Shown here one piece after another: positions 17,372-53,014 of a DNA stretch of 64,000 nt. This stretch comes from Sphingomonadaceae bacterium (lineage in GTDB: Bacteria > Pseudomonadota > Alphaproteobacteria > Sphingomonadales > Sphingomonadaceae). The stretch covers positions 16,557 through 80,556 of the forward strand of contig JBJXFA010000068.1 of the NCBI GenBank assembly GCA_046153865.1. Reading direction: 5' to 3'. The position numbers were made by a program, and so were the translations under genes. The notes under the pieces were generated by a model. It did not search any database. It saw only the letters and a list, made by a program, of their open reading frames with translations, and was not told where the DNA came from. The number at the start of each line of letters is the position of its first letter. Positions within the stretch are counted from its first letter, which is position 1.

Positions 17372-17447
17372 GCCGCTTTAGCTCAGCCGGTAGAGCATCG
17401 CATTCGTAATGCGAGGGTCAGGTGTTCGAGTCACCTAAGCGGCACCA
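17372..17447 (+). tRNA. tRNA-Thr(CGT)
   Basis: 76-nt cloverleaf: GCCGCTT/AAGCGGC acceptor, TCGCA-TTCGTAA-TGCGA anticodon arm, GTTCGAG T-loop, encoded CCA. Confidence 0.96.
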
Positions 17448-30711: not shown

Positions 30712-31691
30712 GCATGCTCGATCCCGGCGCGTTGCGCGACGAGGCGCACGAGGAGCCCGATCCCGTGCACACCGGCCCGGTGACCAAGGAAACGCAGATC
30801 ATCGCGATCTACGGCAAGGGCGGCAGCGGCAAATCGTTTGCCTTGGCGAACCTCAGCTACATGATGGCGCAGCAGGGCAAGCGCGTGCTGCTCATCGGCT
30901 GCGATCCGAAGTCCGATACGACCAGCCTGCTCTTCGGCGGCAAATCGACGCCGACGATCATCGAGACCTCGTCGCGCAAGAAGCTCGCGGGCGAGGAGAT
31001 CGGCATCGAGGATGTCTGCTTCCAGCGCGACGGGGTGTTCGCGATGGAATTGGGCGGCCCCGAAGTCGGCCGCGGCTGCGGTGGGCGCGGGATCATCCAC
31101 GGCTTCGAGACGCTCGAGAAGCTGGGGTTTCACGAGTGGGGCTTCGATTACGTCTTGCTCGATTTCCTCGGCGATGTGGTGTGCGGCGGCTTCGGCCTGC
31201 CGATCGCGCGCGACATGTGCCAGAAGGTCATCGTCGTCGCGTCGAACGATCTTCAGTCGCTCTATGTCGCGAACAACGTCTGCAAGGCGGTCGAATATTT
31301 CCGCAAAATGGGCGGCAATGTCGGTGTCGCGGGGATGATCCTCAACAAGGACGACGGGACGGGCGAGGCGAACGCGTTCGCCGCCGCAGTCGGCATTCCG
31401 GTGCTCACCGCGATTCCCGCCAACGAGGATATCCGAAAGAAAAGCGCAAACTACCAGATCATCGGCAAGCCCGGCGGGCAATGGGCCTCGCTGTTCGAGG
31501 AACTCGCGATCAACGTCGCCGAAGCGCCGCCGCTGCGCCCGACGCCGCTCGATCAGGACGGGCTGCTGGGGCTGTTTTCGGCCGATGTTACGGGGGCGGA
31601 TTATTCGCTCAAGCCCGCGACGCAGGGCGATATGCGAGGGAGCGCGTTCGTGCCCAAGCCCTCGCTCGAAGTGGTCTATGATGCAGTCTGA
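30708..31691 (+). CDS. bchX: Chlorophyllide reductase iron protein
   Basis: [41 protein letters not shown]. Confidence 0.96.
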   Translation: MSMLDPGALRDEAHEEPDPVHTGPVTKETQIIAIYGKGGSGKSFALANLSYMMAQQGKRVLLIGCDPKSDTTSLLFGGKSTPTIIETSSRKKLAGEEIGIEDVCFQRDGVFAMELGGPEVGRGCGGRGIIHGFETLEKLGFHEWGFDYVLLDFLGDVVCGGFGLPIARDMCQKVIVVASNDLQSLYVANNVCKAVEYFRKMGGNVGVAGMILNKDDGTGEANAFAAAVGIPVLTAIPANEDIRKKSANYQIIGKPGGQWASLFEELAINVAEAPPLRPTPLDQDGLLGLFSADVTGADYSLKPATQGDMRGSAFVPKPSLEVVYDAV

Positions 31692-33300
31692 GGGCGCGAC
31701 CAATCCACCCCGGAACGGGGAGGTGCCCGAAGGGCAGAGGGGCCGGGTCGAGCTTGGCGCTTCCCTCGCAGCTGATGAGCGCGTTACGAGCGGCCCCTCC
31801 GACCCTTCGGGCCACCTCCCCGTTCCGGGGAGGATTGAAGGGGCCTGTTCCTCCAAAGACACACTGCGCGCGGCTGCGGTCGAGGCGGGTAAATCCGACG
31901 TGCTTGCGCGCTATGCGGCCGACTATCCGACCGGGCCGCACGATCAGCCGCAATCGATGTGCCCTGCGTTCGGATCTTTACGCGTCGGCCTGCGCATGAA
32001 GCGCACCGCGACGGTGCTCTCGGGTTCGGCGTGCTGCGTCTACGGGCTGACCTTTACCTCGCACTTCTACGGAGCCAAGCGCTCGGTCGGCTATGTGCCG
32101 TTCTCGTCCGAAACGCTCGTCACCGGCAAGCTGTTCGAGGACATCAAGGAAGCCGTCGAAGGCCTCGCCGACCCGGCGAACTACGACGCGATCATCGTCA
32201 CCAATCTCTGCGTGCCGACGGCGAGCGGCGTACCGCTGCAACTGCTGCCCAAGGCGATCAACGGCGTGCGGATCGTCGGGATCGACGTGCCCGGCTTCGG
32301 CATTCCGACGCATGCCGAGGCCAAGGACGTGCTCTCGGGCGCGATGCTGCACTATGCGCGCGCCGAGGCCGAAGCAGGGCCGGTCGCCGCGCCCAAGGAT
32401 CGTTCGGATTTGCCGACGGTGACGTTGCTCGGCGAGATGTTTCCGGCCGATCCCGTCGGCATCGGCCAGATGCTGGCGCCGCTCGGGCTGGCGGCAGGTC
32501 CGGTCGTGCCGACGCGCGAGTGGCGCGAGCTCTATGCAGCACTCGATTGCGCGTGCGTCGCGGCGATCCATCCCTTTTACTCGGCCAGCGTCCGCGAATT
32601 CGAAGCGGCGGGGCGGACCGTGATCGGCTCGGCGCCTGTCGGCATTGACGGCACGGCAGCCTGGCTTGACGCGGTGGGTGCCGCCTGCGGGATCGCGCAG
32701 GCCAAGGTCGATGATGCGAAGAACCGCTTCGTCCCCGCCATTCGCGCCGCTCTCGCCGCCAAGCCCATTTCGGGACGCATCACGGTCTCGGGCTATGAGG
32801 GCTCCGAACTACTGGTGGCGCGCCTTCTGATCGAAAGCGGCGCAGAAGTCCCTTATGTCGGCACGGCCTGCCCGCGCACCGTGTGGAGCGACCCCGATCG
32901 CGACTGGCTCGTCGCGCGCGGCGTTCATGTGGAATATCGCGCGAGCCTCGAGAAAGACCTTCAGGCCGTCGACGCGTTCGCGCCCGATCTTGCGATCGGC
33001 ACGACGCCGGTCGTTCAGCACGCCAAGGCGCGGTCGATCCCGGCGCTCTATTTCACCAACCTGATCTCGGCGCGCCCGCTGATGGGCGTCGCGGGGGCAG
33101 GCTCGCTCGCGCAGGTCGTCAACGCGGCGATGGCGAACAAGGATCGTTTCGAGCGGATGACGGACTTCTTCGAAGGCGTCGGCAATGGGCACACGGCGGG
33201 CGTCTGGGAAAAGACTCCGGTCGATCGCCCCGAGTTCAAGGCCAAGTTCGCCGCCAAGCGCATCGCCGCCGCCAAGGCCGAGGAGGCTGTCGGTGTTTAG
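31678..33300 (+). CDS. bchY: Chlorophyllide reductase subunit Y, with N-terminal in-frame palindrome insert
   Basis: GPHDQPQSMCPAFGSLRVGLRM, GSACCVYG, NLCVPTASG. Confidence 0.95.
   Translation: MMQSEGATNPPRNGEVPEGQRGRVELGASLAADERVTSGPSDPSGHLPVPGRIEGACSSKDTLRAAAVEAGKSDVLARYAADYPTGPHDQPQSMCPAFGSLRVGLRMKRTATVLSGSACCVYGLTFTSHFYGAKRSVGYVPFSSETLVTGKLFEDIKEAVEGLADPANYDAIIVTNLCVPTASGVPLQLLPKAINGVRIVGIDVPGFGIPTHAEAKDVLSGAMLHYARAEAEAGPVAAPKDRSDLPTVTLLGEMFPADPVGIGQMLAPLGLAAGPVVPTREWRELYAALDCACVAAIHPFYSASVREFEAAGRTVIGSAPVGIDGTAAWLDAVGAACGIAQAKVDDAKNRFVPAIRAALAAKPISGRITVSGYEGSELLVARLLIESGAEVPYVGTACPRTVWSDPDRDWLVARGVHVEYRASLEKDLQAVDAFAPDLAIGTTPVVQHAKARSIPALYFTNLISARPLMGVAGAGSLAQVVNAAMANKDRFERMTDFFEGVGNGHTAGVWEKTPVDRPEFKAKFAAKRIAAAKAEEAVGV
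31702..31836 (+). repeat. 135-bp palindromic element (copy A), in frame within bchY
   Basis: Arms AATCCACCCCGGAACGGGGAGGTG / CACCTCCCCGTTCCGGGGAGGATT; 45 codons, no stop. Confidence 0.9.
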
Positions 33301-33310
33301 CGCCGCTCCT

Positions 33311-33447
33311 AATCCTCCCCGGAACGGGGAGGTGCCCGCAGGGCGGAGGGGCCGGGTCGAGCGCGTCGCCCGTTTCGAGGCATTGGCGCGCGCGTCGAGC
33401 GGCCCCTCCACCACTTCGTGGTCCTCCTCCCCGTTCCGGGGAGGATT
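33311..33447 (+). repeat. 137-bp palindromic element (copy B) between bchY and bchZ
   Basis: Arms AATCCTCCCCGGAACGGGGAGG / CCTCCCCGTTCCGGGGAGGATT; inner GGAGGGGCC..GGCCCCTCC. Confidence 0.9.
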
Positions 33448-46135: not shown

Positions 46136-51391
<5,256 letters not shown>

Positions 51392-51417
<26 letters not shown>

Positions 51418-53013
51418 CGTAAAGCGTGTCGAGGGATATCGACACTAGGCCATGCGCGGCGGCATAGGCTTCGGTGTTACGACGTGCCTTGCCGCGCACG
51501 AAGAAGGGGATTTTCTTCAATTCGGTTTCGGCCTCAGCGTCCCATAAATCCCCCCCGGAACGGGGAGGTGGCGCGCGGAGCGTGACGGAGGGGTCGCTCG
51601 ACGCGCTCTCCAAAGCCTCGGATTCGCCGCGCGCTTCACCCGGCCCCTCCGGTCCTTCGGACCACCTCCCCGTTCCGGGGAGGATCTGGCCGTGGCCCAG
51701 ATGGCTCGCGCCGTGTGCATCTGAGAATTCGAAATCGTCGCGGAACATCGTCAGCAGATGCTCTTCGAGGCCCATCGTCAGCGGGTGAATCAGCGTATCG
51801 AACAAGACGTTCGCGCCTTCAAAGCCCATGAAGGGCGAATGGCGCGCGGGAAAATCCTGGACATGGACGGGGGCCGAGATCACCGCGCAGCCGATGCCGA
51901 GCCGCTTGGCGATGTGGCGCTCCATCTGCGTGCCGAGCACGAGTTCGGGCTGGAGTGCGGCGATCGCGCTCTCGACTTCGAGATAGTCGTCGGTGATCAG
52001 CGGCTCGAGGCCGTGCTCCTCCGCCGCAGCGCGCAGATCGCGGGCGAATTCGCGGTTGTAGCAGCCGAGGCCGACGACCGCGAACCCCATCTCGTCGCGC
52101 GCGACCTTGGCGAGCGCGATCGCATGCGTCGCGTCGCCGAAGATGAAGACGCGCTTGCCGGTGAGGTAGGTCGAATCGACCGAGCGGCTCCACCATGGCA
52201 GCCGCGACGAAGCGGCGAGCACCGGCGCGGGATCGACGCCTGCGAGTGCGGCGACCTCGCGCACGAAATCGCACGTAGCACCATGGCCGATCGGGATCGT
52301 GCGCACGCAGGGCTGGCGAAAGGTGCGTTCGAGCCAGCGGGCGGCCTGATCGCCGGTTTCGGGATAGAGCAGGATATTGAAATCGGCCGCGCCGATCTGC
52401 GCGATGTCGGCGGGCGATGCGCCGAGTGGCGCGACGAGATGGACGTCGATGCCGAGGCGATCGAGCAGTGTGGTGATCTCGGCCACGTCGTCGCGGTGGC
52501 GGAAGCCGAGTGCCGTGGGTCCAAGCAGATTGGCGCGAGCGCGGCGCCCTTCGAGCGGCGTGCGCACCACCGTCTTGTCGGCGAGATGGCGCACGAGCTG
52601 GTAGAAGGTCTCGGACGCGCCCCAGCTTTCCTTGCGGCTGTAGCTCGGCAGTTCGAGCGCGATCACCGGTACGGGGAGGTGCATCGCCTCCATCAGCCCG
52701 CCCGGATCGTCCTGGATCAGCTCGGCGGTGCATGATGCGCCGACGAGGATCGCCTGCGGCTGGTAGCGCTCATAGGCGTCACGCGCGGCCGACTGGAACA
52801 ACTCGGCGGTATCGGTGCCGAGATCGCGTGCCTGGAAGGTCGTGTAGGTGACGGGCGGGCGCTTGCCGCGCCGTTCGATCATCGTGAACAATAGGTCGGC
52901 GTAAGTGTCGCCCTGCGGCGCATGCAGCACGTAATGCACACCCGTCATCGCCGTCGCGACGCGCATCGCGCCGACATGCGGCGGGCCTTCGTAGGTCCAG
53001 ACGGTTAGTTGCA

Positions 53014-53014
<1 letters not shown>
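51392..53014 (-). CDS. bchB: DPOR subunit B, with in-frame palindrome insert before the C-terminal PCP domain
   Basis: [48 protein letters not shown]. Confidence 0.96.
51547..51686 (-). repeat. ~140-bp palindromic element (copy C), in frame within bchB
   Basis: Arms AATCCCCCCCGGAACGGGGAGGTGG / CCACCTCCCCGTTCCGGGGAGGATC; encodes ILPGTGRW...PPPRSGGD. Confidence 0.9.

Follow-up and report, generated by a model that had tools for sequence, protein, structure and literature searches.

In-frame palindromic repeat DNA in the disordered linker of the nitrogenase-like subunit BchB of a Sphingomonadaceae bacterium

The window analyzed here, a 64,000-nucleotide (nt) stretch of contig JBJXFA010000068.1 (assembly GCA_046153865.1, Sphingomonadaceae bacterium), carries bchB, which encodes subunit B of DPOR (dark-operative protochlorophyllide oxidoreductase), and inside bchB lies a 138-bp palindromic element that is read in frame with the gene. 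This insert is one copy of a palindromic repeat family spread across the Sphingomonadales, which we named family A and which comprises G+C-rich, hairpin-forming palindromic repeats of 90-165 bp. With a probability of roughly 0.85, we conclude that the family-A copy at 51548-51685 is in frame and forms nearly the whole disordered linker of BchB, at a site that has been hit recurrently. The features of the gene and its insert are as follows.

51392..53014, reverse strand: bchB (DPOR subunit B, 540 aa), the host of the insert, defined by its open reading frame (ORF) and by alignment to PDB chains and homologues.
51548..51685, reverse strand: in-frame family-A palindromic element, 138 bp, 46 codons, BchB residues 444-489, defined by inverted repeats, fold and ORF.
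51548..51571: terminal inverted repeat arm 1 (ATCCCCCCCGGAACGGGGAGGTGG), itself a hairpin.
51662..51685: terminal inverted repeat arm 2 (CCACCTCCCCGTTCCGGGGAGGAT).
51395..51544, reverse strand: coding region of the BchB C-terminal domain PCP_red (W491-R540), intact downstream of the insert.

The arms of the insert are 24 nt long, 96% complementary (23/24) and separated by 90 nt, and the 171-nt insert region folds with −52.9 kcal/mol compared with −39.1 ± 3.2 kcal/mol for 200 shuffles (z = −4.3). A first-pass annotation of this DNA had proposed a self-complementary element of ~140 bp at 51547-51686; its inverted arms and fold confirm it as real, with the true ends lying one base further inside on each side. 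The same annotation had described a passage without stop or frameshift, and this was found as well: the 46 codons begin at codon offset 0, the ORF is intact, and the encoded peptide ends in ...PPPRSGGD. The insert is located between ...SHLGHGQ and the C-terminal PCP_red domain, past the catalytic core. In base composition it departs from its host, having G+C contents of 0.72/0.72/0.76 at codon positions 1/2/3 versus 0.69/0.46/0.81 in the rest of bchB; the difference between the third and second positions (GC3−GC2) is 0.04, compared with a minimum of 0.15 among all other 46-codon windows of the gene, and the codons AGG, CCT and GGA, rare or absent elsewhere in bchB, are used. Because the codon-position G+C pattern of bchB is missing and rare codons are used, the insert appears to be of non-coding origin.

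The host gene is intact. Residues 1-540 of the window BchB align to the PDB chains 8vqi_B, 9buo_B and 3aek_B (E down to 5e-248), and the best homologue has 87% identity, with PF00148 and PF08369 present. Thus the Oxidored_nitro core, the PCP_red domain and a full-length likeness to solved structures identify the protein as DPOR subunit BchB. D36 and C95, which we take to be cluster-ligand and catalytic residues, a role reportedly set out by Muraki et al. in 2010, are both present and fall in invariant columns of an alignment of 56 sequences including the window BchB. In the C-terminal domain, W491, E498, L499, K501 and P503-K509 (PFFVRGK) are invariant in the 56 homologues and all are kept. 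Together with the intact ORF and an identity of 87-89% to the nearest relative, this bears out the proposal that the element sits at a tolerant site of a nitrogenase-like enzyme.

To describe the site itself, 120 BchB homologues with 72-87% identity were taken, whose source names are mostly Sphingomonas, and the linker from SHL to the conserved motif of the C-terminal domain could be delimited in 115 of them. It ranges from 16 to 61 aa and is unalignable. AlphaFold2, run on a 56-sequence alignment, gave residues 427-487 no secondary structure and a predicted local distance difference test (pLDDT) score of 32-35, and gave residues 490-540 three helices with a pLDDT of 84-96. The PDB sequences of R. 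sphaeroides and R. capsulatus BchB align end to end with the window protein and have linkers unrelated to its own; viewed residue by residue, that of R. sphaeroides is of similar length and unrelated sequence. The position had been assigned beforehand to the variable linker ahead of the C-terminal domain, an assignment that these results uphold. The window linker consists of GHGQ, the 46 element-encoded residues and L, 51 aa in total, which is an ordinary length among homologues; therefore, the element is the linker and does not lengthen it. Accordingly, the earlier statement that about 46 residues had been added holds as to the number of residues encoded, and fails as to an increase in length. 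The element would thus have replaced a previous linker, and the phylogeny suggests that it did so once the lineage had separated from its nearest sampled relative.

The end motif of the insert occurs seven times in the window against 0.03 expected, and three complete family-A copies are present there. An exact 24-mer of the end was found at >118 loci among the matches listed from a species-representative genome collection; all genera and families named in the titles of these matches belong to the Sphingomonadales (Sphingomonas, Novosphingobium, Sphingomicrobium, Sphingopyxis, Sphingorhabdus, Stakelama and Novosphingopyxis). These 24-mer loci plus the window, amounting to 0.9 Mb of Sphingomonadales DNA, contain 115 complete copies with a commonest length of 121-124 bp. 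The ends have the form AAATCCT-CCCCGGAACGGGG-AGG and are inverted at a distance of 60-130 nt. The outermost AAATCCT...AGGATTT is conserved to 92-99% up to the sixth outward base and to 70% at the seventh, and further out the sequence is random. Each end is itself a hairpin, CCTCCCCG-GAA-CGGGGAGG, with an 8-bp stem and a 3-nt GAA loop. Next to it lies a second hairpin for which 52 distinct stems were found with pairing kept, that is, with covariation, and whose loop is G-N-A in 134/174 hairpins whose stem has 4 bp or more. The order inward is therefore end hairpin, second hairpin, GGAGGGG box, variable center and mirror image, and the two arms often belong to different subtypes, which gives the element a polarity. 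At gathering thresholds, Rfam yielded one tRNA only across the whole window and no match on the elements; in the full-text literature searched, neither the DNA core nor the peptide signatures of family A were found, and the family is apparently undescribed.

Both further copies in the window lie in the same photosynthesis gene cluster, and the one in bchY had not been covered by the first-pass annotation.

31678..33300, forward strand: bchY (subunit Y of chlorophyllide oxidoreductase, COR), whose start ATG lies across the end of bchX, an arrangement shared with relatives.
31702..31836, forward strand: second in-frame family-A copy, 135 bp, 45 codons, in the N-terminal tail of BchY.
33311..33447: third family-A copy, intergenic between bchY and bchZ, with 22-nt arms that are 100% complementary.

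The window BchY begins MMQSEGAT[NPPRNGEV...HLPVPGRI]EGACSSKDTLRAAA, with EGACSS after the element, and close homologues begin MMQSEGACSS...DTLRAAA. No in-frame ATG or TTG is present from the element to the conserved CSSxDTLRAAA, and the only GTG after the element start is a codon of the element itself, with no spacer behind its Shine-Dalgarno-like run. Because the shared start ATG overlaps the bchX stop and no usable start follows the element, the bchY copy is read in frame. Its site is empty in locus L200 and holds a 21-nt remnant with the same right junction in L201. The same tail carries family A in four further BchY proteins (P0128, P0180, P0181 and P0194), a decayed copy in P0192, and another palindromic family, family C, in six (P0125, P0150, P0208, P0211, P0213 and P0218); a PDB search with BchY gave no match. 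The third copy is also absent from L200 and L201, and in L201 bchY and bchZ overlap by ATGA. Its terminal GGAGGA (33440-33445) stands 5 nt before the bchZ ATG (33451), so that the copy appears to supply the ribosome-binding site of bchZ; likewise, in L202 an element gives the Shine-Dalgarno sequence ahead of a biotin carboxylase gene. Since the bchY and bchY-bchZ copies are missing at the orthologous sites of relatives with ~90% protein identity and the family extends throughout the Sphingomonadales, signs of mobility are evident, in agreement with the mobile, repeated palindrome that had been postulated.

Next to the family-A copies, unrelated palindromic families were found in the BchB linkers of other species. 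In 40/115 linkers (~35%), peptide motifs were recognized that are typical of translated palindromic repeats from at least four families: A, B (RHAELVSAS...WTLKQVQGDG), C (SPLPLAGGAGGG...PPLAPPASGRG) and D (PFVSSEVE...STSLDTNG). Eight metagenomic bchB loci have a linker peptide with a repeat motif, and inverted arms of 14-39 nt are present in seven of them, representing family C (L123 and L135), A (L127 and L152), D (L136), B (L138) and a fifth family (L198); the eighth locus, L124, looks like an A/C chimera. In a neighbor-joining tree with the linker masked, carriers are interleaved with element-free sequences, and the three nearest neighbors of the window BchB are element-free. One clade has both states: on its empty side, P0085, P0021, P0028, P0043, P0009 and P0017 end in ...PVAEPEVIAARG, and on its filled side, P0093 and P0025 have a family-C element directly upstream of the ...PVAEPEVIAARG motif. 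Visibly decayed linker copies occur in P0033 and P0111. As several unrelated families occupy the same linker and are scattered over the tree, the BchB linker looks like a recurrent landing pad for palindromic elements. The arms of the window copy are of subtypes 4 and 5, compared with type-2 arms in the other family-A copies in BchB (ILPGTGRGTA..GGGG..PLH..GPPPR, from peptides translated by hand), and this difference indicates that the window copy is an independent insertion. A plausible course is that the elements insert at many places and persist only where the segment hit is tolerant and disordered, and a turnover of insertion, decay and deletion would generate the hypervariable linker.

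In-frame copies of family A are not restricted to the bch genes. The count of in-frame copies within coding sequences, which the first-pass annotation had proposed, came to 10/115 family-A copies (~9%) in genuine genes, these being long ORFs with a coding G+C signature on both flanks as judged by a GC3 test. The hosts, named from their translations, are valyl-tRNA synthetase (ValS; two sites, three genomes), UvrC, RNase R (two copies in one gene), an oxoprolinase/hydantoinase-like protein, two DNA methyltransferases and a terminase-like protein (loci L009, L020, L031, L046, L064, L069, L075, L076 and L092). In most copies of the family, 3-5 of the six frames are open, and an insertion at a tolerant site would therefore keep the ORF roughly one time in four. 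In 12/13 coding copies, translation of the C-terminal inverted repeat gives PPPRSGE(D/E); for the N-terminal repeat, each of the three frames is in use. Stop codons were rejected as an explanation for this bias in exit frame, all three frames being open in 64-73% of cases. Three loci carry copies in gaps of apparent housekeeping operons (nuoJ-nuoK in L113, rplJ-rplL in L106 and nuoF-nuoG in L102), which suggests that these copies are co-transcribed with essential genes.

Several observations weigh against the conclusion that a mobile family-A element created the window linker. The alignment of BchB with close relatives, by which empty-site alleles were to be found, yielded no clean one: toward the closest relative (P0001, locus L199, 87% identity), homology at the DNA level ends at SHLG and picks up again at W. 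Because the linker of this relative is wholly non-homologous, the insertion event is deduced from family membership, and with no clean empty site an earlier linker must have been lost. Removing the 138 bp would leave ~5 linker residues, below the natural minimum of 16, so that extra deletion steps have to be assumed. In addition, the family-A copies in different BchBs always span GHG to (D)LW, which chance and tolerance would not obviously give and which may reflect site preference or gene conversion between copies. A search for RNA and proteome data gave a single RNA run, which contained 4% of the words and is unusable as transcript support; that the 138-bp insert is translated and tolerated as a linker is presumed. 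A homologous linker of equal length in relatives lacking the element would have spoken against an insertion, and what was found are linkers of similar length that are not homologous.

Other explanations were weighed on the same evidence. It is unlikely that the insert is adaptive, whether as a selected Pro/Gly/Ser/Glu-rich flexible tether or as an mRNA hairpin tuning bchB translation or mRNA stability in the bchFNBHLM operon. Its inverted ends are almost intact, element-bearing linkers are common, and the Shine-Dalgarno sequences that family A gives to bchZ and to the L202 biotin carboxylase gene make roles in expression possible; however, unrelated linkers suffice in the nearest relatives, four or five unrelated families at the least do just as well, copies decay (P0033, P0111 and P0192), and the insert is devoid of the mark that prolonged selection as coding DNA leaves on codon positions. 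One old family-A insertion into the bchB of a sphingomonad ancestor, passed down to every lineage that bears the element and lost or overwritten elsewhere, would explain the same GHG...(D)LW position in all family-A-bearing BchBs. It is nevertheless very unlikely given the different arm types of the window copy and the others, the scattering of carriers among element-free clades with element-free nearest neighbors of the window protein, and the unrelated families B to E in the same linker.

Two insertions in one cluster, in the nitrogenase-like subunits BchB and BchY, might also raise the suspicion of a bchB pseudogene or an impaired product in a lineage losing phototrophy, but there is hardly any room for this: both ORFs are full length, BchB keeps its high identity to the nearest homologue and all residues invariant in the 56 homologues, D36 and C95 among them, bchX/Y/Z, bchN and bchH are full-length ORFs and bchL and bchM open frames, and both insertions are confined to segments that vary freely in other species. 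An assembly artefact, either a repeat-induced chimeric join or a collapsed repeat, has a next to negligible chance of being correct. Public short-read contigs do break at the borders of the element, leaving loose ends at positions 51546 and 51685, as is expected of a repeat, but in run X1, an independent biofilter-metagenome run, a 260-nt contig over 51435-51694 spans both junctions with 0 differences, and in run X3 (same study as X1, P1) two contigs cover 51522-51763, again with 0 differences. Both flanks are bchB in the same frame, which argues against an assembly join, and many bchB genes that were assembled independently contain homologous copies in frame. Among the metagenome contigs, no clean with/without polymorphism of the insert was seen, and apparent skips trace to the bchB of other species. 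Insertion of a mobile family-A element at a recurrently used, tolerant linker thus remains the explanation that we favor.

How the family spreads was addressed through its flanks and neighboring genes. For target-site duplication, matches between left and right flanks equaled those of shuffled pairings, with repeat lengths of 4-10 nt and no offset standing out, and exact-match counts between the element flanks were at expectation. A 9-bp "EGA" duplication at the bchY copy was rejected, since it has 7/9 matches and eight other copies score as high, placing it in the range of chance. No transposase lies between or beside the family-A copies in the loci examined, no insertion sequence (IS) with matching ends was found in the 0.9 Mb, and the genes between close element pairs (L113, L106, L037 and L102) look like housekeeping genes (nuo and rpl, judged by eye). 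The only gene found to accompany the elements consistently encodes a DUF559 protein of ~115 aa, a Vsr-like PD-(D/E)xK nuclease (PF04480, E = 2e-28; PF18741 also matched). Every one of the 13 DUF559 genes in the loci has an element hairpin within 10-81 bp, and six have one on either side. Loci in which such a gene abuts the arms or stands between them are L002, L012/L086, L013, L014, L023, L030, L034, L051, L084, L091, L110, L111 and L202-L204. Furthermore, 80/120 DUF559 homologues picked by protein similarity alone have element-derived peptides at their termini as called, namely NPPRNGEGD..GGGG at the N-terminus, PPPRSGE at the C-terminus, or both. In L202 (1222-1682) and L204, arm-DUF559-arm units of ~460 bp have the same ends as family A.

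Given the hairpin ends, the lack of a duplication and of a transposase, and a DUF559 gene bracketed by arms, the elements may spread by a nuclease-partnered mechanism, REPIN-like or Ssn-like, acting on DNA hairpins. The association suggests, short of proof, that the DUF559 gene encodes the partner enzyme of family A. Two points count against this partnership. The gene usually stands in the gap that separates the beta-subunit gene of an acyl-CoA carboxylase from the alpha-subunit gene (at least 11 loci, once with the opposite orientation), and at such a conserved site the adjacency could stem from one ancient insertion in an intergenic hotspot; moreover, the usual view of DUF559 proteins is that they are Vsr-like mismatch endonucleases (PMC12907096). 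A literature search combining DUF559 with palindromic or repeat terms returned nothing relevant and no paper linking DUF559 to repeats.

Three other features of the window complete the inventory.

47721-47829: family-D-like palindrome between bchH and bchL, 46-nt arms, 80% complementary, CCCGAGCGAAGCCGAGGGGC...
17372-17444: tRNA gene, 70 bits, the sole Rfam match in the window.
52664-52682: match in bchB resembling a terminal inverted repeat with 3 mismatches, rejected as an element.

The first of these resembles family D of the BchB linkers of other species. The last is a native HLPVPVI motif that is conserved in homologues, and its likeness to the repeat translation HLPVPGRI looks coincidental.

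Beyond Rickettsia, the case provides a well-controlled instance in which selfish palindromic DNA has become protein, in a structurally characterized host enzyme whose tolerant segment can be pinpointed. It also shows that a single inter-domain linker can be rebuilt repeatedly out of different repeat families, a concrete way in which disordered linkers arise and turn over rapidly. In terms of annotation, it implies that length variants of bchB and bchY, as well as many sphingomonad "hypothetical proteins", reflect such repeats. The framing of DUF559 by element arms makes the spread of the family testable and may give a role to part of a large uncharacterized nuclease family.

In-frame translation of a palindromic repeat where the protein tolerates it is clear here but not unprecedented, the type of event being known since the Rickettsia palindromic elements (RPEs), reportedly described by Ogata et al. 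in 2000, and from several miniature inverted-repeat transposable elements (MITEs). Of added interest are the repeated occupation of one linker by several families, the BchY copy in the same cluster, the apparently undescribed family and the possible DUF559 partner. Like RPEs, family A consists of palindromes of ~100-150 bp in many copies, both intergenic and in frame inside protein-coding genes, where they add peptide at structurally tolerant, variable places, as in the BchB linker, the BchY tail and the 10 copies found in other genes. The hosts of RPEs are obligate intracellular bacteria rich in A+T, whereas family A has 73% G+C and resides in free-living Sphingomonadales; membership of family A in the RPE families by sequence is thus very unlikely on compositional grounds. 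Family A further differs in its hairpin ends with a covarying second hairpin, in the several unrelated families sharing one landing site, and in the identifiable candidate for a partner nuclease gene.

With bacterial MITEs known to occur within coding regions (Correia/NEMIS, ERIC, the Coxiella QMITEs of PMC5896051, and enterobacterial small mobile sequences), family A shares small size, non-autonomy, terminal inverted repeats and occasional in-frame translation. It differs from them in having no target-site duplication. No IS with matching ends was seen in the 0.9 Mb, and no transposase; the ~460-bp arm-DUF559-arm unit does share the ends, and its DUF559 protein might or might not act as a transposase.

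Similar in architecture are repetitive extragenic palindromes (REPs), their doublets (REPINs) and the REP-associated tyrosine transposase (RAYT), reportedly treated by Bertels and Rainey and by Nunvar et al. REPs, bacterial interspersed mosaic elements (BIMEs) and REPINs with RAYT are inverted doublets of short imperfect hairpins (Di Nocera et al., PMC3733652). Family A is likewise an inverted doublet of short hairpins that forms a larger hairpin, exists in many copies mostly between operon genes without target-site duplication, and has one small nuclease-type gene at a conserved chromosomal site flanked by the repeats. Unlike REPINs, it flanks a DUF559 PD-(D/E)xK endonuclease gene and not a Y1 HuH transposase gene, its ends lack the GTAG/CGTC tetranucleotide, and ~9% of its copies are intragenic and in frame. 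A RAYT (PF01797) flanked by the repeats was not found, DUF559 (PF04480) being the only domain consistently flanked, in a survey that included no systematic RAYT scan with hidden Markov models.

The Ssn proteins are GIY-YIG single-strand nucleases flanked by NTS/SRM hairpin repeats that have multiplied throughout the genome; the SRM-rich genera include Sphingomonas and Rhizorhabdus, and NTS repeats are seldom inside genes (2%) (PMC11893778). Both systems have a repeat-nuclease-repeat architecture with a small single-domain nuclease. The family-A nuclease, however, is of the PD-(D/E)xK type (PF04480, PF18741) and not GIY-YIG, the SRM consensus CGTCATTCCCGCG... is unlike the family-A AAATCCTCCCCGGAACGGGGAGG, and the DUF559 side is known from sequence alone. 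We therefore offer only tentatively, at somewhat less than even odds, the proposal that family A is a non-autonomous partner of DUF559, so that PD-(D/E)xK would be the third repeat-nuclease-repeat superfamily after the HuH RAYTs and the GIY-YIG Ssn nucleases, and that such elements would be a major continuing source of disordered linkers and tails in sphingomonad proteins, including two nitrogenase-like enzymes from a single photosynthesis cluster.

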